Source: Ignavibacteria bacterium (GTDB lineage: Bacteria > Bacteroidota > Ignavibacteria > Tepidaquicellales > Tepidaquicellaceae). Taken from it: a stretch of 64,000 bases of DNA. The notes below the pieces were generated by a model. The model was not told where the DNA came from and ran no database searches. It saw nothing but the letters and a program-made list of their open reading frames with translations. The stretch lies in NCBI GenBank assembly GCA_016719565.1, contig JADJYU010000010.1:78400-142399 (forward strand), given 5' to 3'. The translations under genes were made by a program, and so were the position numbers. Position 1 is the first letter of the stretch. Every line of letters begins with the position of its first letter. Shown here piece after piece: positions 1 through 14,903 of the stretch.

Positions 1-765
1 CAGTTTGCAGTTCCTCAGGATAATGTAAACGTAATTTTTGTAGTAAGAGGCGTTAACGCTCCACAGAATTTTGCAGGAAACACAGATCAAAACGGACAGA
101 TCCAGTTTTGTTATGTCGGTACAAATCCGGGAAGAGATACTATCTTCGCAACAATCGGAACAACAGGCAGATCTGATACCGCTTATAAACTGTGGGAAGA
201 TCCGCTTCCTGTCGAACTTGCTTCATTTACTTCCACAGTCTCCGGTAACAGCGTCAGTCTGAAATGGTCAACAACCGAAGAGATCAACAATTCCGGTTTT
301 GATATTGAAAGATCAGTAAACGGCGCATGGACAAAGGTTGGTAATGTGAACGGAAACGGTACGACAAATGAAATGAAGAATTATGAATTCACTGACAGAG
401 GCGTAGCGTCAGGAACTTATAATTACAGACTGAAACAGATAGATTTTAACGGATCATTCGAGTATTACAATCTAAGCAGTGAAGTAATAGTCGGAGTACC
501 GGATAAATTCTCTATCGCTCAGAATTATCCGAATCCATTCAATCCATCTACAAAGATCGACTTCCAGATCCCTGCTGACGGCAAAGTAAAACTTGCAATC
601 TATGACAACAGCGGAAAGGAAATAGCAGTGCTTACAGATGAAGTGAAAACAGCCGGATACTATTCGGTGAATTTCAATGCAACAGATCTGTCAAGCGGAA
701 TTTACTTCTATAAAATCGAATATAACGGATTAAATAAAGTAATGAAAATGACATTGCTGAAGTAA
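1..765 (+). CDS. C-terminal part of a secreted T9SS cargo protein (5' end outside window)
   Basis: Frame 1 is open from nt 1 (QFAVPQDNVN...); the ORF track shows only the part after an internal Met at 346. Ends with a PVELASF..LKWST..NNSGFDIER module followed by a Por/T9SS C-terminal sorting domain (QNYPNPFNPSTKI...GIYFYKI...MTLLK). Confidence 0.85.
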   Translation, partial: QFAVPQDNVNVIFVVRGVNAPQNFAGNTDQNGQIQFCYVGTNPGRDTIFATIGTTGRSDTAYKLWEDPLPVELASFTSTVSGNSVSLKWSTTEEINNSGFDIERSVNGAWTKVGNVNGNGTTNEMKNYEFTDRGVASGTYNYRLKQIDFNGSFEYYNLSSEVIVGVPDKFSIAQNYPNPFNPSTKIDFQIPADGKVKLAIYDNSGKEIAVLTDEVKTAGYYSVNFNATDLSSGIYFYKIEYNGLNKVMKMTLLK

Positions 766-791
766 TAAATAAATTGTTATTGCAATTCTAA

Positions 792-819
792 AGCCGGGCT
801 GCAAAGTCCGGCTTTTTTT
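792..819 (+). terminator. Rho-independent terminator
   Basis: AGCCGGgctgcaaagtCCGGCT hairpin followed by a T7 run, 27 nt after the stop at 765. Confidence 0.75.
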
Positions 820-978
820 ATTTTTGAAATTAGATCATTCAGTTTACCGCAAAGAAAATTTACTTTCCTGAAAAGACTATTAATTTTATTTATTAAACAT
901 CAGGCTTTCGAAAGAAGATATTTAACTCCCGGGAAAAGAAATTAAACTTTAAAGTGAAGACACAAAACATCCGGGAAA

Positions 979-1314
979 AGACATTTGGCTTTAAATCAGA
1001 GACATTCGGCTTTCAAAAATAGACATTCAGCTTTGAAAAAAAGACATGCGGCTTTCAAAAAGAGACTTTCAGCTTTTAATCGGAGACTTTTGGATTTCAA
1101 TAAGAGTCACGCTGCTTTCAACAAGAGACATGCGGCTTTCAATCAGAGACTTTTGGTTTTCGTCAGGAGACTTTTGGCTTTCGGTAAGAGATTTTTGGTT
1201 TTCGTCAGGAGACTTTTGGCTTTCAAAAAGAGACTTTTGGCTGTCAAAAATAGACATGCGGCATTCAAAAATAGACATTCGGCAGTCGTCAGAAGACACG
1301 AAGCAGCCGGAAAA
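979..1314. repeat. Tandem array A: 16 units of exactly 21 bp, no indels
   Basis: Units start at 979, 1000, 1021 ... 1294. Consensus AGACATGCGGCTTTCAAAAAG, with an AGACTTTTGGYTTTC variant. Degenerate in-phase units (AGACA/AGAAA/AGATA starts) continue upstream to about 916. Confidence 0.9.
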
Positions 1315-1446
1315 TGAGTTTCGGAAGTGACGAAACAAATAAATTCAATTGAGAAATCGTTATTGTAAGTGAAGAAAACATTGTCTTAAGTTGAGAAATC
1401 GTTGCGTTAGTGGAGAATGAGTCTACAAACAGTTCATAAAAAGTGT

Positions 1447-1656
1447 ACAGCAGTTCAGATAAAGGCTGCAGTGGTTCCGAAACAGGCTGCGGTGGTTGAG
1501 AAGAAGTTCGCACAGTTCCGAAACAGGTTGCGGTGATTGAGAACGATACCGCTACAGTACCTAAACACAGTGCTGCGGTCGATAAACAGGTCGCTGCGGT
1601 CGATAAACAGGTCGTTGCGGTCAATAAACAGGACACTGCGGTCGATAAATGCGGTG
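1447..1656. repeat. Tandem array B: about 10 units of 21 bp (different family, partly 42-bp super-period)
   Basis: CTGCGGTCGATAAACAGGTCG occurs twice exactly (1573, 1594), flanked by diverged copies. Upstream units alternate GTTCCGAAACAGG and TTGAGAA types. TTGAGAAATCGTT also occurs at 1349 and 1391 (42 bp apart) in the linker. Confidence 0.85.
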
Positions 1657-1803
1657 AAAATTTTTACTTTAAAACTTAAAACTGCAAATATGGGTTGTTT
1701 TTCGATATTTCGGAAAAATAATTCCGCAGACGGTGAAGTCAATTATCAATTATTAATGATCAATGATCAATATAATTTAAAAAGTTTGGACTTTACAGTA
1801 AAT

Positions 1804-1947
1804 TCACTTCACCAGCGACAACTTCTTTGTCTGATTAAAGTTATCCGCCGAGAGCTTGTAGAAATATATACCGCTTGCAAGTCCGCTGCCGTCAAATACT
1901 GCTTTATAATATCCAGCTTCCCTGTATTCATTTACAAGCGTCTTGAT
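1804..1947 (-). pseudogene. Remnant of a T9SS C-terminal sorting domain (3' end of a lost cargo gene)
   Basis: The reverse strand translates as IKTLVNEYREAGYYKAVFDGSGLASGIYFYKLSADNFNQTKKLSLVK*. There is no upstream ORF. The fragment abuts the REP hairpin at 1951. Confidence 0.7.
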
Positions 1948-1950
1948 TTA

Positions 1951-1991
1951 CCCCCGTCAGAGTCTCCGGTGCTCTACCGGGACTCTGACGG
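1951..1991. repeat. REP-like palindromic hairpin, copy 1
   Basis: cccCCGTCAGAGTCtccggtgctctaccggGACTCTGACGG: 11-bp perfect stem plus inner CCGG pairing. Confidence 0.85.
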
Positions 1992-2142
1992 ATAGCTTAG
2001 CCAGTTGAAATTACAGATCGTAAATATTAATTTCCTCTGACGATTTAAGAGGAGGATTTTATGGCTACAAGAATTAGAGATTTAGTTCTGAGTCGGTGTT
2101 GCGGGCGGATCGTAAATACCGGCGAATTAAGAGGAGGATTTT

Positions 2143-2690
2143 ATGGCTACAAGAGTTAGAGATTTTATTCCTGAAAGAATTTATTTTATCACATATACCA
2201 TATACAAATGGAAAAGTGTTTTTACAGAGGAAAAATATTTTAATCTGATTTACAAATGGTTCGACTATATGAAAAAATCATTATAGTAACAAAATCCATG
2301 GATATGTTATCATGCCCAATCATCTTCATTTATTGTTGTACATTTCACACTATTCGCCTGATGTATCCAAATTAATACAAAATGCCAAAAGATTTCAGGC
2401 TTATGAAATAGTTGATTTTCTTGAAGAAGATAATAGAAAAGATTTGCTAAAAATATTTTCAGAAGCTGCAGAGATTCAAAAAGGAGCAAAGCATAAAGTT
2501 TTTAAAGACAGGTTTGATTCAAAAGAAATGGTGAATTCAGATCTATACAGGGAAAAATTAAATTACATTCATAATAATCCATGCACGCGGGAAGTGGAGA
2601 CTTGCAGAAAAGCCGGAGGACTATAAACATTCAAGCGCTTCAAATTATATAATTGGAAATGGAGTATATGATGTCGAGTTAGTTTATTAG
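2143..2690 (+). pseudogene. REP-associated tyrosine transposase (RAYT / IS200-like Y1 HUH transposase), two frameshifts
   Basis: GAGGAGG RBS and ATG at 2143 (MATRVRDFIPERIYFITYT...). The frame breaks at the A-run near 2272-2286. HUH motif in VIMPNHLHLLL and catalytic Tyr motif NYIHNNP. A second frame break at about 2586-2596; the restored frame reads WRLAEKPEDYKHSSASNY... to the TAG at 2690. Confidence 0.75.
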
Positions 2691-2708
2691 TTGAAAGTTC
2701 GGAGCTTA

Positions 2709-2750
2709 CCGTCAGAGTCCCGGAAAGAGCGCCGGAGACTCTGACGGGGG
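2709..2750. repeat. REP-like palindromic hairpin, copy 2 (inverted relative to copy 1)
   Basis: CCGTCAGAGTCccggaaagagcgccggaGACTCTGACGGggg. Its reverse complement matches copy 1 except in the loop. Confidence 0.85.
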
Positions 2751-2910
2751 TTTAAAAAAATTAAATTACATTCATAATAATCCATGCACTCCGAGATGGA
2801 GACTTGCAGAAAAGCCGGAGGACTATAAACATTCAAGCGCTTCAAATTATATAATTGGAAATGGAGTATATGATGTCGAGTTAGTTTATTAGTTGAAAGT
2901 TCGGAGCTTA

Positions 2911-2952
2911 CCGTCAGAGTCCCGGAAAGAGCGCCGGAGACTCTGACGGGGG
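2911..2952. repeat. REP-like palindromic hairpin, copy 3 (same orientation as copy 2)
   Basis: Same sequence as copy 2; part of the ~202-bp tandem duplication. Confidence 0.85.
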
Positions 2953-2956
2953 TTTA

Positions 2957-3141
2957 AAGTTTAAATATACAGGAAAAGAAAGAGATAAGGAGAGCTTATA
3001 TGATTATTTCGGTGCGAGGTATTATGATGCGAGGATAGGAAGGTGGGGAACGATAGTCCGTTAATGGAAAAGCATTTTGATTTTAATCCTTACACAATCT
3101 CCCGATTGGGTACGCAGAGTTACGAATCAGGGGATTCTTAA
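2957..3141 (+). pseudogene. Remnant of an RHS-repeat-associated core domain (frameshifted fragment)
   Basis: KFKYTGKERDKESLYDYFGARYYDARIGRWGTI matches the conserved RHS/YD core motif (FTGKE.D...LYY.GARYYDP..GRW.S.DP). After a frame change near 3056-3062 it continues SPLMEKHFDFNPYT. There is no upstream RHS ORF. Confidence 0.6.
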
Positions 3142-3145
3142 AGAG

Positions 3146-3174
3146 CAAATAAAAACCGGATAATTAGTCCGGTT
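3146..3174 (-). terminator. Rho-independent terminator of the SBBP-repeat gene
   Basis: AACCGGAtaattagTCCGGTT hairpin. On the minus strand it is followed by TTTTTATTT, about 40 nt past the stop at 3211. Confidence 0.65.
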
Positions 3175-3210
3175 ATATTATTAACATTCAATATTTATTT
3201 TCAACAAAGT

Positions 3211-6200
3211 TTACGGCCTGAGTGTTGAAACAAAGTTGCCGGAATTATTATCCGTTATTCCCAGGTCTGTCAGATCAACTACACCGTCTCCGTTTATATC
3301 CTCTGTTACATATCCGCTTTTAAAATTATATCCGGCATTATCAATTAAACCAAGATCTGATACATCTATTACGTTATCCTTATTTGCATCACCTGTATAA
3401 ACACAATAACGGCTGCCCTGAAGCGTCAGATTATTACCGAATGCTTTTGTTACTGAATTTGTAAAATCATAACTCAATCCTGAAGCGCTGAACTGCATTG
3501 CAGTGTTACTCCAGGTCTCAAGCGAATTCCTGTGGTCAACAATTATATAATAATTTTGTCCGTTCTGAATATTATCAAAAGAAAATATGCAGTTTCCGTT
3601 TGCATCTGAAACTGACACTGAAGAATCTGCAAAATTATAAGGAGAACTTCCGTTTCTTAAAAATACTTTTATTGTGTCAATAGTATTTACATTTAAATTA
3701 CCGTTGTAATATCCTTCGATAAGTACTTTAAGATCAAGGGTATAGCTTTGCAGATATTTCATTGTTACAAAATCAAAACCTCCGCCAAGTCCGTTACTCG
3801 AACCAGTTACATATAAGCTGCCCGAATTATCTACAAGTATAGCAGCAGCTTTGTCAGAATCGTTATCCGAATAATTATATTTCTTTTCCCAAACTTTTGA
3901 TCCGGTGCCGGTATATTTTACTGTACAGAAATTTAGTCCTGTAATATTATCCGTGCAGTATCCCGTGACATATATAAATCCGGCTCCGTCAATTTTGGAA
4001 TCGGAGGCATGGTCATCAGCATTAGATGTTCCGTTGACAGTTCTGTTCCAGATCACATTTCCATTCGGATCATATTTTAAAGTTGTCATATCTTTTCCGG
4101 TAATGATATTATGTAAGCTGCCGGAGATTATTGCATTCCCTTCGGAATCAACTGATACTGCGGATGCTTCGTCATCTGATGATGCCGTACCGTTTAGCAT
4201 CCTTTCCCAGATCTTAACTCCTGCTAAATTGTATTTGAGAAGTAACATATCATTTCCATTAGCGCCTGTATTTGTTTTTCCGCAAATGTATATATTTTCC
4301 GACTTGTCAATTGAAATATCTTCAGGAGTGTCATTGCTGTTAGAGGAAGTATTATTATATCTTACCGCCCATTCCTGATTACCCGAACTGCTGTATTTTA
4401 TAATCACAACATCATCACCGGAACCAGTTCCCGGACTTTTTCCGGTAACATAAACATTTCCAAGATCATCAGCAGTAATTTTTTTTGAAATGTCATTTCC
4501 GTTTGCAGGTCCGTTATAATATCTGATCCATTGCTGTACTCCTGCAGTATTGTATTTTATTGTTGTGATATCATAACCGCTTCCGTTTTGGAGTAAATGA
4601 CCTGTGACAATTACATTACCGGACGCATCCATGGTAATCCCTGATGAATGATCATCACCTCCGGCGCTGCCGTTTGTCTTCTTTTCCCATTGTAAAAAGC
4701 CATCAGTATTATATTTGATCACTGAAACATCAAAACCTGTTATACTTTCACTGCTTCCGGTAATGTAAGTATTTCCGGCATTGTCTGATTCAATTCCTGC
4801 GGGAATGTCATTAAATCCTTCGCTGTCATATCTTGATACCCAGAGCGGAACACCTGAGGGATTGTATTTAATGGTCGCATAATCAAGTTCAGAAAAAGTC
4901 TGGAAACTTGATCCGGTTACATAGAGATTACCCGATGCATCTGTGTCGAATGCAACGGATTCATCCGGTCCGCTTCCTGAACCGTCATATCTGGTTTCAA
5001 AAACAGAGTTACCTGCAGAGGTATATTTAATAGAAAGATAATCGCTCGTTCCGCACAGACTAAAAAAATAACTGTAACTTTGCGCCGTTACAAAAAAGTT
5101 ACCGTTTTTATCTGCATCAATTCCGGTTGGTATATCATCGAGATCTCCGGGACCGTTGTATTGTTTGATCCACAGGACATCTCCGGCGGAATTATATTTT
5201 AAAGTAACTACATCACTTGTGCCATCCGAGAGTCTTATTGAATTTCCGGTTACAGCTGCATTACCGTTTATATCAGCTTTTATTCCGACAGCTTTATCAA
5301 AATAATTTTGATCTCCGTTAAATAATCTTACCCATTGCTGTGCGCCGGAAGGATTTAATTTAACAGTTGCAAAGTCATAGAATGATGAAGGGGAATAGCT
5401 ATACCCTGTAACGAATACATTCCCGCCTGCGTCAAGTGATATTCCTGTTGCTGCATCATCGCTAAGTGTGACTCCGTTGTATCTGTACACCCATTGCTGA
5501 TCTCCGTTGGAATTTAATTTTAAAACTGCATAATCATAACCGGCACCGATCCCTCCTTCGCTTTTCCCGCATACAAAAATATTTCCTGCATTATCTGTTT
5601 CAAGATCTGTGATCTGATCATCTGCAGATATAGGTCCGTTATAAAATTTTTCCCAGAGAAAATCACCTGAACTGTTATATTTTATTATGGCGTAATTATT
5701 TGATTCACCGGTTTTATAAGAATGTCCGGCAAGTACAATACTACCATCTGATGTCATCACTGCTGACTTAAGATAATCATCGGAATTTGAGACACCGTTC
5801 CATCTTTTTCCCCATATGAACGAGCCGTTCAGGTCGTATTTCAATAGAATAAAATCATAACCTGTCCCGCTGCCAAAACTGTAACCTGCAGCATATATTC
5901 CATTCTGTCCGTCGAATAGAATTTTAATTCCGTTGTCATCAAAATTTCCCGTACCGTTGTAAGTCTTTACCCATTGCTCAATCCCGGCTGAATTATATTT
6001 TATAATTATCATATCATTCTGTCCTCCGCCGGCTCTTGAATTACCGGTAATATATGTATTGCCTGAATTATCTCTTACTACACTATTCCCGACATCATTC
6101 TGATTTCCTGTCCCGTTATAATTAGCTATCCATTGTCTTGTTCCGTCCGCTTTAAATTTAACTGTTATTACATCTGAGAATCCTCCGCTTAGAATACTTT

Positions 6201-6384
6201 TCCCCGTCATATAAAAATCACCGGCAGCGTCAATGAATATATCAGAAGGTGTGTCTGTGCTTGATTCGGGTCCGGTATATCTGTGAAGCCATTGCTCGCT
6301 TAACTGTGAATAGCAAACCTGCGATGTGATAAGGAATGCGAGCATGAAACCGAAACTTATAATATTGTAAATTAAATTAATCAT
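3211..6384 (-). CDS. SBBP-type beta-propeller repeat protein with C-terminal dockerin-like double Ca-binding repeat
   Basis: 1057 aa with an N-terminal signal/anchor. About 17 iterations of the ~55-aa unit W...YNG......D....I..D..GN.YVTG.S......D..T.KY...G. The C-terminus carries DANKDNVIDVSDLGLIDN and DINGDGVVDLTDLGITDN (dockerin type I-like pair). No T9SS CTD. Confidence 0.75.
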   Translation of the reverse strand: MINLIYNIISFGFMLAFLITSQVCYSQLSEQWLHRYTGPESSTDTPSDIFIDAAGDFYMTGKSILSGGFSDVITVKFKADGTRQWIANYNGTGNQNDVGNSVVRDNSGNTYITGNSRAGGGQNDMIIIKYNSAGIEQWVKTYNGTGNFDDNGIKILFDGQNGIYAAGYSFGSGTGYDFILLKYDLNGSFIWGKRWNGVSNSDDYLKSAVMTSDGSIVLAGHSYKTGESNNYAIIKYNSSGDFLWEKFYNGPISADDQITDLETDNAGNIFVCGKSEGGIGAGYDYAVLKLNSNGDQQWVYRYNGVTLSDDAATGISLDAGGNVFVTGYSYSPSSFYDFATVKLNPSGAQQWVRLFNGDQNYFDKAVGIKADINGNAAVTGNSIRLSDGTSDVVTLKYNSAGDVLWIKQYNGPGDLDDIPTGIDADKNGNFFVTAQSYSYFFSLCGTSDYLSIKYTSAGNSVFETRYDGSGSGPDESVAFDTDASGNLYVTGSSFQTFSELDYATIKYNPSGVPLWVSRYDSEGFNDIPAGIESDNAGNTYITGSSESITGFDVSVIKYNTDGFLQWEKKTNGSAGGDDHSSGITMDASGNVIVTGHLLQNGSGYDITTIKYNTAGVQQWIRYYNGPANGNDISKKITADDLGNVYVTGKSPGTGSGDDVVIIKYSSSGNQEWAVRYNNTSSNSNDTPEDISIDKSENIYICGKTNTGANGNDMLLLKYNLAGVKIWERMLNGTASSDDEASAVSVDSEGNAIISGSLHNIITGKDMTTLKYDPNGNVIWNRTVNGTSNADDHASDSKIDGAGFIYVTGYCTDNITGLNFCTVKYTGTGSKVWEKKYNYSDNDSDKAAAILVDNSGSLYVTGSSNGLGGGFDFVTMKYLQSYTLDLKVLIEGYYNGNLNVNTIDTIKVFLRNGSSPYNFADSSVSVSDANGNCIFSFDNIQNGQNYYIIVDHRNSLETWSNTAMQFSASGLSYDFTNSVTKAFGNNLTLQGSRYCVYTGDANKDNVIDVSDLGLIDNAGYNFKSGYVTEDINGDGVVDLTDLGITDNNSGNFVSTLRP

Positions 6385-6693
6385 GCGGATGAATTTAGAT
6401 TATACAAAATTAATAAATTATTTTCATAAATGTAAAATTTCATTGTATACAATGTAAAATATTAAAAAAATTCAAACTTGTTGACAGTTTAAATTAAAAC
6501 ATTTAACTTTGTACTGAAAAATTTTAAAGTACAAAATGCGATAGATTTTTTTTTGTAATAATTTTTTATTGTATAGTATTTCCCGGATACCTGAAAATTA
6601 ATTAGATAATTAATATTTAAATAAAGTTCTTCAAAGCTCTATATTTTCTTTTTTATTTAAAAAATATTACTAACTAAACCCTAAGGAGACGCA

Positions 6694-8418
6694 ATGAAAA
6701 TTCTGGAAAAATTTTCAATCAGCTTTGCTGCTATTATTGCAGTAGTTTTACTCAATGTTTTTATCACCAACGAGGCATCAGCTTCTCACTTCCGTTACGG
6801 ACATCTTACCTATACAAAAAATCCGGCTAACAACAATGAAGTCGAGTTTACTCTTACAGGTGCTTTCAGAAGAAATGGTTATGGAGCTCCGGTTGTTGGA
6901 TCCATAATTACTGAAACTGTAGGAGGAACTAACTTAATCTTCGGTGACGCAACAGCAACAGGTACTTTACGTTTTAGAGTTATTTCTATTGATGTAACAA
7001 ATAACTGGCTGCTCGCAAGAGCTCTTCAGCCGGGTGATGATTCTAAAGAAACAATCACAAAAGTTTATGCCCCCGGCGGTCCTTACACAGCAGAAATTAA
7101 TTCCTGCTGCAGAACCGCTGTTGAAATAAATAATCCAAATGGAAGTTACAGAGTATCCACAATTGTAGATGTTTCAAACAGTAACGCTTCACCTGTTTCC
7201 ACTCTTCCTGTTATAGTTAATTTAGTACAGGGCGCTGCATCTTCCTTCAATGTTCCTGCAATCGATCCTGATCCGAATACAACATTAAGATGGAGATTTG
7301 CAACACTTGCAGAAATGGGAGGTGTTAGTCAAAACCCACCTTCAGCAGGCGGTTTCCCTGCAACTATAGACAACTTAACCGGTGTAGTAACATGGAATAC
7401 AACGGGCGCAGTTCTTGGCGGTTTATATTCATGTCAGGTTATTATCGAGGACAGAGACGCAATTGATCCTACAATTTTAAGAACAAGAGTAGCTGTAGAC
7501 TTCCTTATTCAAATAAGTCCGCAATGTACAAATCCAAATTTCCCAATATTTGACGCTCCTACGCCAACTTGCGGTACTGTATTTAATGAAGTTCCCGGAA
7601 CTCCAATTTCATTTTCTGTAAATGCTTCTGACATTGATCCGGGTAATATTACCTTAAATGCTATCGGATTGCCTCCGGGATCAACGATGAATCCTGTATT
7701 GCCACAAGTCGGAAATCCTGTAAGCAGTACTTTTAATTGGGTAGCTCAGCCGGGTGTTTATATCGTTTCTTTTATTGCAACAGACTCCTGCGGAGCACAA
7801 ACGATCTGTACATATTCATTTGATATCGCTCTTCCTGTTGAATTGTCATCATTCGCTTCCACAGTTATCGGAAATGATGTATCACTTCAGTGGTCAACAT
7901 CTTCAGAAACCAACAACTCCGGATTTAACATTGAAAGAGCTGCCTACATCAACGGAGAACTTTCAGACTGGAGTACAATAGGAAACGTTCAGGGTAATGG
8001 AAATTCAAGCAGTGTTAATTCATATTCTTTCACAGACAGAAGTCTGAACGCAGGTACATATACATACAGGCTGAAGCAGATAGATTTCAACGGCAATTAT
8101 GAATATCATAATCTGAATTCAGATGTAGTGATCGGCGTACCTACAAGATTTGAATTAATGCAGAACTATCCGAACCCTTTCAATCCGGCTACAAAGATCA
8201 GCTTTGAGATCCCAAAAGACGGAATTGTTAAACTGACAGTATTTGATAACAGCGGTAAAGAAGTTGCAGTTCTTTCCAATGGATATAAAACAACAGGTTA
8301 CTATTCAGTTGATTTCAACGGATCAAACCTTGCAAGCGGTGTATACTTCTACAAGCTTGAACTTACAACAAATAATGAATCAACAGTTAAGATCAGAAAA
8401 ATGGCTTTAGTAAAATAG
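6694..8418 (+). CDS. Secreted T9SS cargo protein, function unknown
   Basis: AAGGAG RBS and signal peptide (..ITNEASA). C-terminal PVELSSF..LQWSTSSETNNSGFNIER module plus T9SS CTD (QNYPNPFNPATKI...GVYFYKL...MALVK), paralogous to the end of the 1-765 gene. Confidence 0.8.
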   Translation: MKILEKFSISFAAIIAVVLLNVFITNEASASHFRYGHLTYTKNPANNNEVEFTLTGAFRRNGYGAPVVGSIITETVGGTNLIFGDATATGTLRFRVISIDVTNNWLLARALQPGDDSKETITKVYAPGGPYTAEINSCCRTAVEINNPNGSYRVSTIVDVSNSNASPVSTLPVIVNLVQGAASSFNVPAIDPDPNTTLRWRFATLAEMGGVSQNPPSAGGFPATIDNLTGVVTWNTTGAVLGGLYSCQVIIEDRDAIDPTILRTRVAVDFLIQISPQCTNPNFPIFDAPTPTCGTVFNEVPGTPISFSVNASDIDPGNITLNAIGLPPGSTMNPVLPQVGNPVSSTFNWVAQPGVYIVSFIATDSCGAQTICTYSFDIALPVELSSFASTVIGNDVSLQWSTSSETNNSGFNIERAAYINGELSDWSTIGNVQGNGNSSSVNSYSFTDRSLNAGTYTYRLKQIDFNGNYEYHNLNSDVVIGVPTRFELMQNYPNPFNPATKISFEIPKDGIVKLTVFDNSGKEVAVLSNGYKTTGYYSVDFNGSNLASGVYFYKLELTTNNESTVKIRKMALVK

Positions 8419-8440
8419 TTCTCTTTCTTAATATTCATAA

Positions 8441-8474
8441 ATCCCTGTCTGTCTTTCAGGCAGGGATTTTTTTT
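8441..8474 (+). terminator. Rho-independent terminator
   Basis: ATCCCTGTCTgtctttcAGGCAGGGAT hairpin followed by a T8 run. Confidence 0.7.
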
Positions 8475-8513
8475 AAATGTTCGTTGTTCAGATTCAAAAT
8501 TATTTTAATCCCC

Positions 8514-9860
8514 ATGAAAAAATATTACTTTCTTATTTATTTGTTATTGATCAGCAGCGGAGTATTTGCGCAGCTCCCAAATAAGAATACTTATTTAATT
8601 GCGAATATGAATATTCATCCTTCATATTCCGGGTTATGGGGATATGTTGACAGTGAAGGAAGAGAGTATGCGGTTCTCGGCTGCAGTAACGGTACATCAA
8701 TAGTTAATGTAACAGATTCTTCAAATATTTATGAAGTCGGATTTATTCCCGGTCCTGTAAGCGGCTGGAGAGAAGTTAAAGTTTATTCGCATTATGCATA
8801 TGTTGTATCCGAAGGAACAAACAGCAGACTTCAGATCATAGATCTTCAGTATCTTCCGGATTCGATTTATCTGGCAAGGACATGGTCTTACAGCGGTTAT
8901 ACTTATACACATGCTATCTCACAGTCCGGTCCGTATCTTTATCTGAGCGGCGGTAATGCAAGTCCCAACGGCGGCTTGCAGATAGTTGATGTATCTGATC
9001 CGGTGAATCCGGTCAGAAGAGGATTCAATTCCGGGCGATATGTTCATGACTGCCGAATATTAAGTGACACTGTCTGGACCTGTAATATTCTCAATCAGAG
9101 AGTCTCTATAATTAATTCAGGAAATAAAGATAACCCGGAGGAGATCAGAAATTTTTCCACTCTTCAGGGATTTCCGCACAACTGCGCCATCACCGATGAC
9201 AGAAAATATTTATTTGTAACACATGAAAATGAAGATCCCGGTGTACTTGAAATTTATAATATTGAAGACCTGGAAAACATAACTTATATAAGGAGCTGGC
9301 AGCCAACAGGTATTACTTCTTCAATTACTCACAATGTAGAGATCTACGGCAACTACGCAATTGTCGCGCATTATACTTCCGGTGTCAGAATATTAGATAT
9401 TTCGGATCCGGAAAATCCTGTTGAGACTGCATGGTATGACACAAGACCTCAGGATAATTCAACTCAGTTCGAAGGATGCTGGGCGGCGTATTTATTACCG
9501 TCAGGAAAGATTATTGCTTCTGATATTTCAAACGGATTATTTGTTATAAGAGCTACAAACCTTACTAATTTTACGAACATAAAAACTAATATACCTGAGG
9601 AATTTTCGCTGTATCAGAATTTTCCAAATCCGTTTAATCCGGAAACTTCTATTAAGTTTGACATTCCGAAATCAGGTAATGTTAAAATGGAGTTGTACGA
9701 TTCTAAAGGAGCTTTCATTTCAGAGATTCTAAATGAATTCAGAACCGCCGGTTCATATGAAATAAATTACAATGCATCAGCTCTCAGCAGCGGGATATAT
9801 TTCTGCACAATGAATTTCAGCGGGAACAGCAGATCAATTAAAATCTCTTTGATAAAGTAA
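8514..9860 (+). CDS. LVIVD-repeat / choice-of-anchor-B-like beta-propeller protein with T9SS CTD (paralog 1 of 3)
   Basis: ATG at 8514 (MKKYYFLIYLLL.. signal) is preferred over the track's TTG at 8484. Motifs WGY.D.EGREYA.LGC, YAYVVSEGTNSRLQIIDLQYLPDS, GLQIVDVSDPVNP, GVRILDISDPENP. Ends with NFPNPFNPETSI...GIYFC...ISLIK. Confidence 0.7.
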   Translation: MKKYYFLIYLLLISSGVFAQLPNKNTYLIANMNIHPSYSGLWGYVDSEGREYAVLGCSNGTSIVNVTDSSNIYEVGFIPGPVSGWREVKVYSHYAYVVSEGTNSRLQIIDLQYLPDSIYLARTWSYSGYTYTHAISQSGPYLYLSGGNASPNGGLQIVDVSDPVNPVRRGFNSGRYVHDCRILSDTVWTCNILNQRVSIINSGNKDNPEEIRNFSTLQGFPHNCAITDDRKYLFVTHENEDPGVLEIYNIEDLENITYIRSWQPTGITSSITHNVEIYGNYAIVAHYTSGVRILDISDPENPVETAWYDTRPQDNSTQFEGCWAAYLLPSGKIIASDISNGLFVIRATNLTNFTNIKTNIPEEFSLYQNFPNPFNPETSIKFDIPKSGNVKMELYDSKGAFISEILNEFRTAGSYEINYNASALSSGIYFCTMNFSGNSRSIKISLIK

Positions 9861-10040
9861 AAGAGCTTCAAAGGTAAATTCAGTTTTACAAAAATTAACC
9901 CGAATGAAATTTATTTTAAAATAATAAGCAGTTTTATTTAAGTATATAATTCTTATTTTTGAATAAGTTTTTAATTAATTTTTTCAGAGGAGGTGTATAT
10001 TTAATTTCCTACCATAATTAACTTAAGTCAACCCAATCAT

Positions 10041-13000
10041 ATGAATCTGACTAAAATTCTTCTTATACTATTAATTAACGTATTCGCTTCTGATTTTCTT
10101 TTCTCGCAGGATTACAACTGGATCACACCAAATAAAACTTATCTTAAATTATATATCGCAGATGACGGAATTCACAGGATCAATAAATCTGATTTTGAAA
10201 ATGCCGGTGTAAGTACATCAGCTATTGACCCGAGGACTTTAAGAGTTTTTAACCGCGGGAATCAGATCCCTGTATTTGTGAGAGGGGAGTCAGACGGATT
10301 CTTTAATGATTCGGATTTCGTTGATTTTTACGGGACAAGAAATTACGGCGGTCTTACTAATGCATATAATCAGGACAATCAAATTGTATATTCAACAAAT
10401 GAACGTTTTGATCTTTACTCTGATACGAATGTTTACTGGATAGACTGGGGCGGTACAAATGGTTTGAGAATGTTTAACTCTGCGTATGCCGCGCCTTCAA
10501 ATTATCTTCAGAATTTTTCAAACGAACTGCTTCATCTTGAAAAAGATAAAATTTACTGGATCGGTCAGGCTTCGAGCTCAAATGATTTCGGTAATTTTAC
10601 TAATGAAAGATATCTCGGAGAGTCATGGTACTGGAGCTTGCTTGGTAACGGGCAGTCAGTTTCTGATACTTTCTCTATCCCGCTGCTGAATAAAAATTTG
10701 CCAACGGTTTCATTAAGGGTATTCGCATATCCGCAGAGCGCAAGCTTTTCTGTAACAAACGAACATAATCTACAGATCAAAGTAAACGGAAATATCGTAG
10801 CTGATTTTGTAAGAAATGATTTCAGCAGAGTGGATACTGCTGTTACATTTTCTTCTGCATTGCTTTCTGAAACTACAGTAAACAATGTTACTGCAACGTA
10901 TACTTCATCAGGCGGATTTTCAGGAACTATGTTTCTTGATATGTTTGAATTTAAATACCCGAAAGTTTTAAAATTCAGAAATAATATATCCTTAATGGAT
11001 CTTGCCGGAGAGGATTCGACTTCTAAGAAGATTAAATTATCCGGTTTCAATCCGGGTAATCAGACGTTTATTTATGATATAAAAAATAATATCCGGATTA
11101 CTTCATTTTCAAATTCAGCTGACACACTGATATTTTCCGCAAAGCAAAATTCAAAAATAGAGATCACCAATAAAGTTATTTCAAAAAAGCCTTTTAAAAT
11201 TATTCAGAGACAGGTGCCTGATCTTGTATCATCTGCAAACGGCGCTGATTATCTGATCATTTATAATAAGATCTTTGAATCTCAGGCATTGCAGCTTCAG
11301 AATCATCGTGAGACTTATGATAATTTCAGAGTTAAGATCACGGAGATAAAAGGTATTTATGATATATTTAATTTCGGTATTGAAAGTCCGGATGCTGTCA
11401 GAAATTTTAACAGGCATATTTTTTATAACTGGCAGCAGCCAAGAGTAAAATATATCTGTCTCTTCGGGAGAGGTTCCCTTGATCCGAAAAAAAATTCAGA
11501 TGCAACTGTCTATCGTGAAAATCTGATCCCCGTAAAGGGCAATCCCTCTTCGGATAATTTTTATTCAAATGTTTTTATTAATAATTTTATTTTCTATAAT
11601 CAGATCTCTATAGGAAGACTTCCGGCTCTTAATGTTTCAGAAGCTCAGAATATGGTAAATAATATTATCACTTACGAAACACAGCCTCCGCAAAAGTGGT
11701 GGAAAGATTTTACTTTTATAGGCGGAGGGGTAAATCAGGCTGAACAGCAGCTGTTCCTTTCGCTAAATAATGACTCGCTTATCAATCCATATATACTCTC
11801 AAATCCTGTTAAGGGAAATCCGGTAAGAATACTGAGGAATGATCTTAACGGCGCTGAAACATTTAATTATTCCGACTCAATAAAAAATCAGATAAACAGG
11901 GGAACACTCACGGTAAACTTCATGGGACATGCAGGAAGTCAGGACTGGGAAATTGCTTTGAATGATCCTGAAATTTTAAGTAATCACGGAAAGTTTCCTG
12001 TGATACTCAGCATGACCTGCTATACAGGAAAAGTAGGTGAGCCAAATTTCAGATCTTTTGGTGAACGGTTTATGAATATGAATAATACCGGAGCTGTTTC
12101 TTTTTTTGCTACTTCAGGCTGGGGGTTTGTGTATTCAGGTTCATTAATTAATTCTTTATTCTATAAATCTTTTGCAAAAGATACGGTGAGAAGAGTAGGT
12201 GATATGGTATCTTATGCAATGAATTCAATTAAAAGCGATTCTCTCAGTTTTTCAATCAGACATACTGTAAACTGTTACACTCTGATGGGTGATCCGGCTC
12301 TTAAGCTGCAGCTCCCTGCTTATCCGGAGTTTACTATTTCCGAAAACGATTATAAGCTTTCAAACAAAAGTCCGTCTGTAAATGAACCAATAAACCTGAA
12401 AGTATTCCCGCAGAATTTCGGATTGAATTCAGATTCGGCAACAATGAGATTACTTGTTACAAAAGATTTTGCTAAGTATTATTTCAAAGATACTGTCCTC
12501 AGAAATTTTTCATCAAAGGATTCTATATCTTATAATTTTAAGCTGAATTCAAAAGGAAGATATGAAGCAAAAGTAATTCTGGATCTTTATAATTCTTCAC
12601 CTGATGAAAATAAAAATGATAACACTCTGATATTTGAAATTGATGTAAAAAATGTTTCATTCGTTCCTTATAAACCTGTTCATAATTCAGTAGTAAGAAA
12701 AGACAGCGTTGAATATGTCGGAATGAATCCGTTTATTAAGAAAAATGAAAAATCTATAATTCTGCTACTTCAGACAGATACATCTGCAAATTTTAATTCC
12801 CCGGTAAGTCAGCTTTTTATAAATAAAGAACCTCACGGCGCTGTTTCAAAATTCAAAACTCTTCTTCCCGTAAAAGATACTTCAAAGCTTTATTACTGGA
12901 GAACTAATTCTGTAATTAACGGTGACAGCAGCGGCTGGTCTGCAGTTCAGATGTTTAAGTATAATCCGCTTATTTCCATTTCGGATAAAACTATAGATAG

Positions 13001-14903
13001 CGCATCCGATACTTTGACAACAATTTACAAAATAAGTCCTCAGCAGTTTCAGCCGTTTGAACTTACCAATACTTCATATAATACTGAAAACAGTGCAAAC
13101 GGAATTAAGATAAGTGAATTTCCGGGAACACTTTATGTCCGTTCTCTTGGCACAAACGGAGCTGAGGCTTCTTATTTCTCTGTAATGAATAAAAGCATTC
13201 ATATGGATGCCGGCGGAAATTCAGGTATGAATCTTCTTAAGGTTAGAAAAACAGACGGTAAGATCTTGCAGTATAAAAATTTTAAAATGACCTTCCCGAC
13301 TTCTTCAGATTCAATTTTGAATTTTTTAAATACGTTTGACACTACACATTATCTTATGGGTCTCAATGCAGCTTATGTCGCAGGTACTTTCCTTTTGAAT
13401 ACAAACGTAATAAATAAATTTGCGCAGTTCGGCAGTACAAAAGTCTCTAATTTCAGGATCGGATTTTTCGACTCATGGAGCTTTATCGGATATCTTGGCG
13501 CGCAGCAGTCAGATGTTTCAGAAACTCTGAACAGATATATAAGCAGCTGGATAGAATCCGAATCTTCACAGAATAAAAAATTCAAATGGACATATGGATA
13601 TTCTGAATTCAGCATTGGTCCGGCTAATGCATGGCAAAATTTTTCATGGAATAATATTCTTCTTCCTTCAAACAAAATTTTATTTGATGTCTATGGAGTA
13701 AAACCCGACGGAAATTCCGATCTGCTGTTACAAAATATATCAACAAATTCTAATACAGATCTTTCTGCTGTAAACGCTTATCAGTATCCTGTATTGAATT
13801 TTATGGGAAAATACACAATCGATACTTTAACCGGAAGTAAGTCGCCGGTTCTTACTTCATTTAAAGTAAATTACCGTAATCCCGCCGAACTTGCAGCGGA
13901 GCTTGATGATCTGTGGAAATCGGATTCAACAGCTGTTTCCGGAAAGGAATTAAAAGTAAGATTTAAAATTTATAATGAAGGTGATATTGATCTCCCGGGA
14001 TATATTGCGAATGTTTATATGCTGAAAAATTCCGAAAGTTTATTTCTGAAATCCGATACACTTAATAATTCACTGCTGAAAAATAATTCTGTCATTCATG
14101 AATCAAAATTCATAATTCCTGTATTAAGAAATTCTTCTGATTATATTACATTTTTTGTTGAAATACTTCCGAAAGGAAATTATACTGAAGCGTTTACATT
14201 TAATAATTATGTTTACTTTGATCTTTTAAATGCACCGGCTTCTTCAATTGCCGGTATAGAAGTTTTCAGTGACGGAAAGAAAATTCAGGACGGAGATAAT
14301 GTCAGTCTGAATCCGGAGTTAAAAGTTTCTGTTAACACTGATCCGGATCTGGCTAATTCGGACGCAGTGATAAATCTCAAAGAAATTCTGATAAATGGTG
14401 TCAGTGTCAATGACAGAACAGTTGCGGAGAAGAATTCAAAGGATAATAATACTATAGTTAAAAGAGCTGAAAGAAATTTAAGCTTTTCTAATGAAATGAT
14501 ATTTCATCCGGGATTGATCAAAGGTACAAATACTTTAACAGTAATCTTCGGAGATCAGAATGGAAATTCTGATACGGCAAGTTTAACTCTGAATGTAAGT
14601 GATCTGTATTCAATCGGAGAACTTTATAATTATCCTAATCCGATGAAGACAGAAACGAATTTCATTTTTGATCTGACAGGTTTTGAAAATCCGGGTAACG
14701 GAAAAATTAAAATATACACTGTATCCGGAAAGATGATCAGAGAGATTGACATACCGTTGAATTTCGGATTTAATACAATTAGCTGGGACGGAAAGGATAA
14801 TGACGGAGATATTATTGCGAACGGAACATATCTCTACAAATTATTTATCACCGGCGCTGAGAATCTGGAATCAGAAGTGAAAAAGCTTGTAATTCTTAAA
14901 TAA
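10041..14903 (+). CDS. Peptidase C25 family cysteine protease (gingipain/PorU-like), 1620 aa, with C-terminal T9SS/FlgD-Ig-like domain
   Basis: Signal peptide. Candidate His-Cys dyad NFMGHAGSQ (His codon 11928-11930) and LSMTCYTGK (Cys codon 12018-12020), 30 residues apart as in C25 enzymes. C-terminus YNYPNPMKTETNFIF...WDGKDNDGD..ANGTYLYKL...LVILK. Confidence 0.7.
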   Translation: MNLTKILLILLINVFASDFLFSQDYNWITPNKTYLKLYIADDGIHRINKSDFENAGVSTSAIDPRTLRVFNRGNQIPVFVRGESDGFFNDSDFVDFYGTRNYGGLTNAYNQDNQIVYSTNERFDLYSDTNVYWIDWGGTNGLRMFNSAYAAPSNYLQNFSNELLHLEKDKIYWIGQASSSNDFGNFTNERYLGESWYWSLLGNGQSVSDTFSIPLLNKNLPTVSLRVFAYPQSASFSVTNEHNLQIKVNGNIVADFVRNDFSRVDTAVTFSSALLSETTVNNVTATYTSSGGFSGTMFLDMFEFKYPKVLKFRNNISLMDLAGEDSTSKKIKLSGFNPGNQTFIYDIKNNIRITSFSNSADTLIFSAKQNSKIEITNKVISKKPFKIIQRQVPDLVSSANGADYLIIYNKIFESQALQLQNHRETYDNFRVKITEIKGIYDIFNFGIESPDAVRNFNRHIFYNWQQPRVKYICLFGRGSLDPKKNSDATVYRENLIPVKGNPSSDNFYSNVFINNFIFYNQISIGRLPALNVSEAQNMVNNIITYETQPPQKWWKDFTFIGGGVNQAEQQLFLSLNNDSLINPYILSNPVKGNPVRILRNDLNGAETFNYSDSIKNQINRGTLTVNFMGHAGSQDWEIALNDPEILSNHGKFPVILSMTCYTGKVGEPNFRSFGERFMNMNNTGAVSFFATSGWGFVYSGSLINSLFYKSFAKDTVRRVGDMVSYAMNSIKSDSLSFSIRHTVNCYTLMGDPALKLQLPAYPEFTISENDYKLSNKSPSVNEPINLKVFPQNFGLNSDSATMRLLVTKDFAKYYFKDTVLRNFSSKDSISYNFKLNSKGRYEAKVILDLYNSSPDENKNDNTLIFEIDVKNVSFVPYKPVHNSVVRKDSVEYVGMNPFIKKNEKSIILLLQTDTSANFNSPVSQLFINKEPHGAVSKFKTLLPVKDTSKLYYWRTNSVINGDSSGWSAVQMFKYNPLISISDKTIDSASDTLTTIYKISPQQFQPFELTNTSYNTENSANGIKISEFPGTLYVRSLGTNGAEASYFSVMNKSIHMDAGGNSGMNLLKVRKTDGKILQYKNFKMTFPTSSDSILNFLNTFDTTHYLMGLNAAYVAGTFLLNTNVINKFAQFGSTKVSNFRIGFFDSWSFIGYLGAQQSDVSETLNRYISSWIESESSQNKKFKWTYGYSEFSIGPANAWQNFSWNNILLPSNKILFDVYGVKPDGNSDLLLQNISTNSNTDLSAVNAYQYPVLNFMGKYTIDTLTGSKSPVLTSFKVNYRNPAELAAELDDLWKSDSTAVSGKELKVRFKIYNEGDIDLPGYIANVYMLKNSESLFLKSDTLNNSLLKNNSVIHESKFIIPVLRNSSDYITFFVEILPKGNYTEAFTFNNYVYFDLLNAPASSIAGIEVFSDGKKIQDGDNVSLNPELKVSVNTDPDLANSDAVINLKEILINGVSVNDRTVAEKNSKDNNTIVKRAERNLSFSNEMIFHPGLIKGTNTLTVIFGDQNGNSDTASLTLNVSDLYSIGELYNYPNPMKTETNFIFDLTGFENPGNGKIKIYTVSGKMIREIDIPLNFGFNTISWDGKDNDGDIIANGTYLYKLFITGAENLESEVKKLVILK

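Follow-up and report, generated by a model that had tools for sequence, protein, structure and literature searches.

What purpose, if any, is served by a long run of 21-bp units between two genes of a bacterial chromosome, a period that equals seven codons as well as two turns of the double helix? The question is raised by a tract at positions 832–1671 of a 64-kb stretch of an Ignavibacteria contig (JADJYU010000010.1; the whole stretch is called the window below). No protein is encoded by the tract at present. It is one member of a family of non-coding arrays of 21-bp units, about 0.76–0.84 kb in length, known from at least three chromosomal sites in Ignavibacteria of an activated-sludge (wastewater) lineage. 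The account that we favor, tentatively and short of calling it probable, is that the array acts at the level of DNA: its sites, phased at two helical turns and including a predicted curved block of A-type units (the A block), would be cooperatively bound by a putative protein. A role as a scaffold for a DNA-binding protein is our leading guess.

Architecture of the array

About 40 units (0.8 kb) follow one another head to tail in a single register, as read from a 21-nt printout starting at 853; the in-phase units begin at about 832/853 and end at 1671. The first-pass annotation of this DNA had placed some 35 units, strictly periodic and of at least two families, at 916–1656. Units of 21 bp do run throughout that interval, which has to be extended on both sides, and the periodicity is real and in phase, though not perfectly strict, since a 1-nt deletion near 1510 (absent from the related loci L009 and L019, described below) shifts 1566–1671 by one base relative to array A. 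At lag 21 the identity amounts to 0.62 over 916–1656, 0.73 over 979–1314 and 0.61 over 1447–1656, with lags 42, 63 and 84 following, and Tandem Repeats Finder reports arrays of period 21 and 42 at 979–1283, 1352–1417, 1432–1506 and 1572–1649. The 16 units at 979–1314 stand in register without a single indel, as had been claimed, and the previously described motifs were found again: TTGAGAAATCGTT at 1349 and 1391 in the linker region, and the B-family unit CTGCGGTCGATAAACAGG in two exact and two diverged copies. The 15-mer consensus of the A unit has 14 matches, all within the array (0.94 expected by chance), and the B3 unit has four (0.02 expected), while the tail motif has no further copy elsewhere in the window. 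Two families proved to be an incomplete description: A, junction, linker, B1/B2 (alternating, with a 42-bp super-period) and B3 units can be told apart, all of them in-phase derivatives of one unit. The A and B consensus sequences agree at 12 of 21 positions in register, and thus the entire tract is one diverged array.

On the plus strand the array opens with the pre-A block (832–978), seven decayed in-phase units that still start with AGA or AAA and alternate with a 42-bp rhythm between ...CCGGGAAA and ...TTTAAAGTGA types; this block has a homologous, more diverged counterpart in L013/L017 and L019. The A block itself (979–1293, the predicted curved core) comprises 15 units of the consensus AGAC[AT]T[GT]CGGCTTTCAAAAAG, in which unit positions 1–4 are near-invariant. 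It is followed by the junction (units 0–2, 1294–1356, AGACACGAAGCAGCCGGAAAATGAGTTTCGGAAGTGACGAAACAAATAAA...), the first two units of which are the best conserved across paralogous loci, and which holds a hairpin (1318–1336, GTTTCG-N7-CGAAAC) whose stem is found also in L013, L017 and L019. Read on the minus strand, the hairpin is followed by TCATTTTCC and is weakly terminator-like. An identification of the hairpin with parS was considered and rejected: the arms GTTTC/GAAAC are equal, but they lie 9 nt apart rather than 4. The linker (1357–1461) consists of five unique, mutually diverged 21-bp units, three of which end in GAAA and the others in AATG and GATA. In the B1/B2 block (1462–1565) CAGGYTGCGGTGRTTGAGAA and AAGTTCGCACAGTTCCGAAA units alternate with the 42-bp super-period and the 1-nt deletion is located; the B3 block (1566–1649), displaced by one base from the register of the A block, has four units of the form (C)A(C/G)G..GCTGCGGTCGATAAA. 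On its right the element is bounded by the tail (1650–1771, TGCGGTGAAAATTTTTACTTTAAAACTTAAAACTGCAAATATGGGTTGTTTT...), whose initial ~50 bp are common to all loci; conservation among copies of the window's kind extends to about 1771, where the similarity to L019 stops. A 7-bp tandem repeat (TCAATGA, 4.7 copies, 1739–1771) occupies this right limit of the conserved tail.

A family of arrays at several loci

The array is present in four independent assemblies. It recurs in L001, an ENA short-read contig that is 99.4% identical to the window across 1,628 bp without a gap, in L014, a JGI contig where the window's array sequence is present as far as the contig end, and in L009, the locus syntenic to the window in the Ignavibacteria metagenome-assembled genome (MAG) JADJWZ01 (contig 41, JADJWZ010000041); it is therefore no assembly artefact, a possibility that had been raised at the outset. 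The MAG carrying L009, which keeps the array, is counted as the one long-read assembly by virtue of its name, which follows the scheme of an activated-sludge study based on Nanopore/CANU assemblies polished with Illumina reads (PMC8012365).

Scanning with A-unit patterns identified further, paralogous loci, namely L013, the second array locus of the same MAG (contig 8, JADJWZ010000008), its metagenome orthologue L017, and L019, a third context, neither flank of which matches any other sequence compared. Copies of the window/L009 kind are called type 1 and those of the L013/L017 locus type 2, and comparisons of five copies refer to the window, L009, L013, L017 and L019. The search of relatives, suggested by the first-pass annotation as a check, thus led beyond its claims to a multi-locus family with a conserved layout. 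All copies share, in this order, decayed 5' units with 42-bp alternation, a homogeneous A block with the consensus given above, the junction (AGACACGAAGCAGCCGGRAAATGAGTTTCGGAAGTKACGAAACAAATAAA, its two units identical between paralogues at 20/21 and 20/21 positions, with the same GTTTCG-N7-CGAAAC), unique linker units mostly with a GAAA end, a B block, and the tail (TGCGGTGARAWTTTTTACTTTAAAACTTAA..GCAAATA). L009 is in perfect register and has one unit more than the window. The type-2 locus sits between toxin-antitoxin genes and a resistance-nodulation-division (RND) pump operon, and L019 adjoins an unrelated secreted protein. A hypothetical protein of another Ignavibacteria MAG, P0001, is annotated over a B block and tail, which implies a further copy of the array.

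The JADJWZ01 assembly contains residual homopolymer-type indel errors, with frequent single-base indels in the genes flanking L009 and L013, and the arrays of both loci are in phase despite them. Over 5.9 kb, L009 differs from the window by about 15 single-base indels, several of them intragenic, and the AcrB-like pump gene is a single open reading frame (ORF) of 1033 aa in L017 (1757–4858) and three ORFs in L013 (369–3471). BLAST searches with positions 850–1700 found no match in plasmid and phage collections, and no literature was found on 21-bp arrays in Ignavibacteria or on comparable elements. The matches of a loose periodic DNA pattern in viral contigs, tried as another lead, were unrelated coding 21-nt repeats only.

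The array does not encode a protein today

On neither strand can the array be read through in any frame: all six frames have three or more stops in each of the five copies, and the best frame of the window is interrupted by TGA, TAA, TAA and TAG in addition to a frameshift. The synonymous fraction of the substitutions between orthologous copies ranges from 0.18 to 0.32 over all six frames, i.e. there is no synonymous excess (unconstrained sequence is expected to show about a quarter, by our estimate rather than by computation). Codon usage, scored as a log-likelihood trained on 26 long ORFs from the window, gives −0.05 to −0.29 for the best frame of the arrays and +0.43 ± 0.07 for the window's real genes. 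These results bear out the earlier judgment that the tract is non-coding, and the six overlapping ORFs on which it was passed are found in the array as listed; the peptide strings that the array's frames would yield include AAVDKQVVAVNK and HAAFNQR.

Protein searches with three pseudo-ORFs left two without a match and led the third to P0001 only, another pseudo-ORF. No genuine homologue was found in 5.8 billion clustered proteins or 1.84 billion representatives, databases in which the sensitivity is limited for low-complexity queries; the 60 matches of an exhaustive phmmer search of the 1.84 billion representatives are either generic coiled coils or spurious ORFs called over DNA repeats of 7 or 21 bp that are unrelated to the array. 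Pfam returned a sub-threshold match to Nup54 as the sole result for the array-internal ORFs. Relatives carrying an intact heptad-repeat gene would have pointed to a coding remnant, and none was found among those compared, at either the window or the paralogous position.

Several other coding schemes were discarded. Reassignment of a stop codon was suggested by the in-frame stops of type 2, which are often TGA where other units have TGG; but that frame contains TAA and TAG in both types, and the mixture of TGA, TAA and TAG together with the frameshift in the best frame rules the reassignment out. The small conserved ORF in the tail (MGCFSIF...) has lost its start codon in type 2, and an archive of silent cassettes for antigenic variation finds no expressed homologue. 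In the type-2 B units (reverse complement of L013 2752–2856; also L017) a 5-codon mini-ORF, ATGAGTTGCGGCAATTGA (MSCGN*), follows GAGAA every 21 nt; it is probably meaningless, because the type-1 copies are without it. Tandem DNA repeats with a period of 7 or 21 bp are commonly mis-annotated as heptad proteins, and the public entries P0005, P0006, P0033, P0034, P0043 and P0048 are spurious ORFs of this kind, e.g. (GSRLSAL)n in high-GC organisms. Whichever reading of the arrays is adopted, the ORFs called over them in public records, e.g. MBK9333500.1, are probably not genes.

Conservation of phase and predicted curvature

Between copies, the indels within the array are multiples of 21 bp, with one exception. 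L013 and L017 differ over 880 bp by 74 substitutions and no gap, L009 and L019 by 74 substitutions and gaps of 63, 21, 21, 21 and 21, and the window and L009 by 28 substitutions and gaps of 21 and 1 (the 1-nt gap at 1510), which amounts to one small indel per ~176 substitutions. Indels of 1, 15, 1, 3 and 2 bp start right past the tail in the comparison of L013 and L017, and another lies just 5' of the array. The distance from junction to tail is 18 units in L009, 17 in L019, exactly 19 in both L013 and L017, and 16.95 in the window; the exact spacing is held although the intervening units are highly diverged between types. The mutual identity of the unique units, in linker and pre-A block, is no more than about 50%, but their length of 21 bp is exact throughout.

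A few positions mark the phase. Over 102 A-type units of the five loci, AGAC at unit positions 1–4 is conserved at 1.00/0.98/0.96/0.89, and over 186 units of all types T14 reaches 0.91 and A19–A20 about 0.82 (both sets include near-identical orthologous copies). AGA at positions 1–3 persists even in decayed units.

Curvature was predicted with the Bolshoy-Trifonov wedge model for 1,280 stretches of 210 bp across the 64 kb. Positions 1151–1360 form the most curved stretch of all, with a ratio of end-to-end distance to contour length of 0.62 as compared to a mean of 0.94 (standard deviation 0.04), and the A cores of the other loci are predicted to be similarly compact (0.44–0.68). The phasing of A-tracts that characterizes curved DNA is predicted for the A block only, and the intrinsic curvature that had been proposed for the DNA holds to this extent.

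A proposed scaffold of phased sites and its alternatives

According to the reading that we favor, the array would work as DNA. Each unit would present one short purine-rich mark (AAAAG|AGAC in A, GAGAAA|TGA in B), and, as these marks recur every 21 bp, i.e. every two helical turns, all of them would lie on one face of the helix. A putative protein would bind the marks cooperatively and coat or wrap the DNA, assisted in the wrapping by the intrinsically curved A block, while the junction and the tail would serve as special nucleation sites or boundaries. What the sequences show is the periodicity, the existence of the family, a lack of coding constraint, hardly any indels besides those of whole units, and the predicted curvature; protein binding, cooperativity and a role, be it in nucleoid organization, as a centromere-like site or as a titration site, are what we infer. 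That the unit has stayed at 21 bp in the long term calls for an explanation, and two would fit: selection for helical phase, or the decay of a gene once under selection for its heptad protein. Selection for phase is favored by the existence of several non-coding copies, a stop common to the paralogues, the retention of full length, the invariant phase marks and the predicted curvature.

A number of observations weigh against such a scaffold. The array is substituted about 3–4 times faster than adjacent coding DNA (3.3% vs about 1% between the window and L009, 8.4% vs 2.1% between L013 and L017), so most of its positions look unconstrained, and the substitutions between orthologues are not significantly uneven over the unit positions (chi-square, p ~0.2). 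In the window's lineage a slip of 1 nt in phase has been tolerated. Many substitutions come in clusters inside single units, possibly as products of gene conversion; counted per unit, the independent events are estimated to be nearer 85 than 176, which makes the recent deficit of indels only borderline. Differences between strains form a hot spot at positions 1399–1560, which begins in the linker: 8 of the 9 single-nucleotide polymorphisms (SNPs) relative to L001 fall at 1399–1470, and most differences between the window and L009 are in units 5–14, the flanks and the A block being nearly identical, a pattern that suggests conversion among the alternating B1/B2 units. The B blocks, contrary to the initial proposal, are predicted to be ordinary in this respect and not curved, and some curvature is automatic with any repeat of two helical turns. 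No solitary copies of the unit occur elsewhere in the 64 kb. No gene for a binding protein lies beside the arrays, whose neighbors differ among the three contexts; nor does a model based on DNA only explain the coiled-coil-like heptad in one frame.

This heptad is the starting point of a serious alternative, on balance somewhat doubtful in our opinion, that the arrays are decayed, non-functional copies of an ancestral gene for a heptad-repeat coiled coil, or of a two-gene cassette, with the 21-bp length fixed by past selection and then left to neutral drift. If codons are counted from unit position 1, each unit translates into a heptad, with hydrophobic residues 3 and 4 apart and K/R/Q/E elsewhere (LSAFNKR, LLAFKKR, VAAVDKQ, VSEVTKQ, INSIEKS), and the information per position peaks at second codon positions of this frame (mean 0.82 vs 0.56 and 0.45 bits), to which T14 and T5 belong. 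However, the difference among the three position classes is marginal (F test, p ~0.08), and in type 2 another frame, too, gives a good heptad (ELRQLRN), so that heptad-likeness is partly automatic for a 21-nt repeat. Codon usage is similarly two-sided: the linker and B block of the type-1 copies show a gene-like contrast between frames (+0.05 vs −0.86 and −0.70), but the absolute scores of the arrays are about 6 standard deviations below those of real genes. The plus strand is purine-rich (GC skew about +0.2), as are the sense strands of the window; the frame closes with the non-repeat sequence KCGE[NI]FYFKT* precisely at the start of the conserved tail, and L019 retains an open frame of 75 codons over B. 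The neutral-looking recent evolution, the stops that vary among copies and the frameshift in the window also agree with decay. On the other hand, none of the five arrays is intact, the searches described above yielded another pseudo-ORF and spurious or generic repeat ORFs in place of a real homologue, and a TGA in the junction is common to both types of paralogues, so that a pseudogene must have been copied to new sites. The full length is kept at all loci with the single small indel mentioned above, whereas decaying bacterial pseudogenes are expected to gain more small indels and deletions (a general expectation rather than a measurement). Of the interpretation as a ghost of a heptad-repeat gene, which had been among those first put forward, the pattern in one frame, the purine skew and the codon contrast of linker and B stand, and the intact gene in a relative is missing. 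The arrays might, alternatively, be a neutral satellite that never coded and has no function, expanding and contracting by slippage of units and duplicated by chance. The number of units does differ between strains, substitution is fast, the clustered changes suggest conversion, no genes are associated, and the arrays lie in intergenic 'junk' space next to repetitive extragenic palindromic (REP) elements. But the linker and pre-A units, old as they are, have without exception a length of exactly 21 bp and keep over at least 19 units a phase that neutral decay should have disrupted; the layout, complex and ordered, is kept between paralogous loci along with junction and tail, and AGA is invariant within otherwise decayed units. 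We consider a satellite of this kind quite unlikely.

Still less likely is a repeat-rich non-coding RNA, e.g. a minus-strand transcript running from the tail leftwards to the junction hairpin, which would be unstructured and sequester an RNA-binding protein with its ~20–40 copies of the motif. It would draw on a minus-strand box resembling TAnnTTTG in the conserved tail (perfect in L013, one mismatch in the window and L017), on the terminator-like appearance of the hairpin on that strand, and on the strand-asymmetric composition. The box, considered as a Bacteroidetes-type promoter, was rejected: it is imperfect in three of four tails, and TAnnTTTG is not enriched in the window (36 and 42 occurrences found vs 36 and 43 expected). 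In folding calculations neither strand exceeded its shuffled versions (z +0.5 and +1.4), as would suit a single-stranded sponge; these positive z-scores also dismiss a long RNA duplex of A with B blocks. Rfam gave nothing at the gathering score (weak chance matches fall over the terminator upstream of the array only), the tRNA scan found none, the hairpin is invariant and hence provides no covariation signal, and a sponge has no need of a strict 21-nt unit. That the short ORFs of the array are real small repeat proteins, the candidates being a basic one of 110 aa (985–1317) and one of 75 aa over B in L019, we regard as very improbable. Gene callers do annotate such ORFs, and 985–1317 is identical in L001; yet its equivalent has a stop in L009 and three in L013, the B ORF suffers a frameshift in the window and an interruption in L009 and is TGA-rich in type 2, there is no synonymous excess, and convincing starts are absent.

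The scaffold of phased sites can be extended to a bolder claim, which we think unlikely, of a new class of chromosomal architectural element: a multi-copy array of ~40 units with the polarity A block, junction, B block, tail, on which a candidate Ignavibacteria protein polymerizes and in which selection acts on helical phase and not on sequence. Such an element could be a centromere-like, nucleoid-anchoring or protein-titration site. Should the DNA scaffold be true, the arrays would be a clear example of helical phase, and not base sequence, being under selection, in a poorly studied phylum and a lineage without a cultured model. Should the decayed gene be true, a dead coiled-coil gene would have left a long, misleadingly regular footprint that is still annotated as hypothetical proteins.

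Genomic neighborhood

Upstream of the array, a gene for a type IX secretion system (T9SS) cargo protein with a Por_Secre_tail domain (Pfam) ends at 765 and is followed by an intrinsic terminator on the plus strand (790–815, an 11-bp stem and a T-run), the left limit of the intergenic space. Downstream, an orphan 3' fragment of a T9SS C-terminal sorting domain is found on the minus strand (1809–1950, ...SGIYFYKL...KKLSLVK*, i.e. ...SGIYFYKLSADNFNQTKKLSLVK*), and the array is thus flanked on both sides by the 3' ends of T9SS-cargo genes, two genes that converge on it. The 5' side of the fragment is cut by a REP-like hairpin (1950–1997), and it appears to have been truncated by the REP insertion. 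The hairpin is an inverted copy of 2703–2751 and 2905–2953, and it brackets with them a degraded gene (2045–2690) of the REP-associated tyrosine transposase (RAYT)/IS200-like kind, with the HUH motif PNHLHLL, a Y1_Tnp match below the Pfam cut-off (E=7e-4) and an internal stop or frameshift near 2285. The ribosome-binding site and start of the RAYT-like gene (TTAAGAGGAGGATTTTATGGCTACAAGA) are duplicated, at 2045 and 2127, and a 202-bp tandem duplication (2553–2958, 2.0 copies, 97% identical) repeats its 3' end together with the REP hairpin. The first-pass annotation was right to place the array next to a REP/RAYT locus; this neighbor, however, is specific to the window/L009 locus and absent from the other two contexts, and the adjacency is incidental.

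On a larger scale, positions 1–14903 form a cluster of large secreted proteins, three with T9SS sorting tails, which includes a 1057-aa SBBP beta-propeller repeat protein and a 1620-aa C25 (gingipain-like) peptidase with FlgD-Ig. At the paralogous locus L013, the space from the tail of the array to the RND efflux operon contains 53-bp and 34-bp tandem repeats (4758–4928, TCGCCGTCGGTGGTGTTGCTCCATCCACC...), possibly a further REP-like family.

Comparison with known repeat systems

Some classes of repeats are easily set apart. The units abut head to tail and leave no spacers, unlike CRISPR. REP/RAYT elements are likewise intergenic and repeated, and adjacent at the window locus, but REPs are dispersed palindromic hairpins, whereas the array units are direct repeats without dyad symmetry; a scan for inverted repeats found only the true REPs at 1950–1997, 2703–2751 and 2905–2953. 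Genes and pseudogenes of heptad-repeat proteins have in common with the array the 21-nt unit, an a/d heptad in one frame, a sense-like purine skew and whole-unit indels, and differ from it by the stops in all frames of all copies, the lack of a synonymous excess, the non-genic codon usage and the missing intact homologue. The sites of LytTR-type regulators (AgrA, ComE, AlgR) are 9-bp direct repeats with a 12-bp spacer and therefore resemble the array in their 21-bp center-to-center distance and AT-rich spacer; however, they occur as pairs or triplets before a promoter, while the array has ~40 units, a motif off the consensus and no apparent relationship to a promoter.

In its presumed mode of action the array is most like the iteron and centromere arrays of plasmids, yet it lacks the companions by which these are recognized. 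Centromeres of the repeat type (R1 parC, pSK41 parC with 20-bp repeats, tubC) are bound by ParR, omega or TubR adaptors and comprise ~4–10 repeats directly upstream of a par operon. They too consist of short tandem repeats, which a small DNA-binding protein coats cooperatively into a helical nucleoprotein structure, so that a whole-unit constraint on length is to be expected; genes similar to parA, parM or tubZ, or encoding adaptors, were found beside none of the three array contexts (ORF lists of L013, L017 and L019; Pfam on the window neighbors only). Iterons (the 22-bp repeats of R6K gamma ori, P1 incA, F incC) are direct repeats of ~19–22 bp, about two turns apart and often accompanied by bent DNA, in arrays of roughly 3–9 units that a replicon carries next to its initiator gene and an AT-rich unwinding region. 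The likeness lies in tandem direct repeats phased near two helical turns on one face, with a conserved core and a variable spacer. The array, with units of exactly 21 bp and about 40 of them, differs in being chromosomal and in having no similarity to plasmid or phage records; its flanks encode a T9SS cargo, a RAYT remnant, toxin-antitoxin modules and an RND pump, but no cognate Rep initiator, and nothing obviously like an AT-rich unwinding element or DnaA boxes was seen on reading 700–1800, where no dedicated scan was made. If the scaffold of phased sites is true, the arrays would be the chromosomal counterpart of plasmid iteron and centromere arrays, several times longer. With a decayed heptad-repeat gene as a serious alternative, the array is best filed with the bacterial tandem binding-site or iteron-like arrays, as a new variant.

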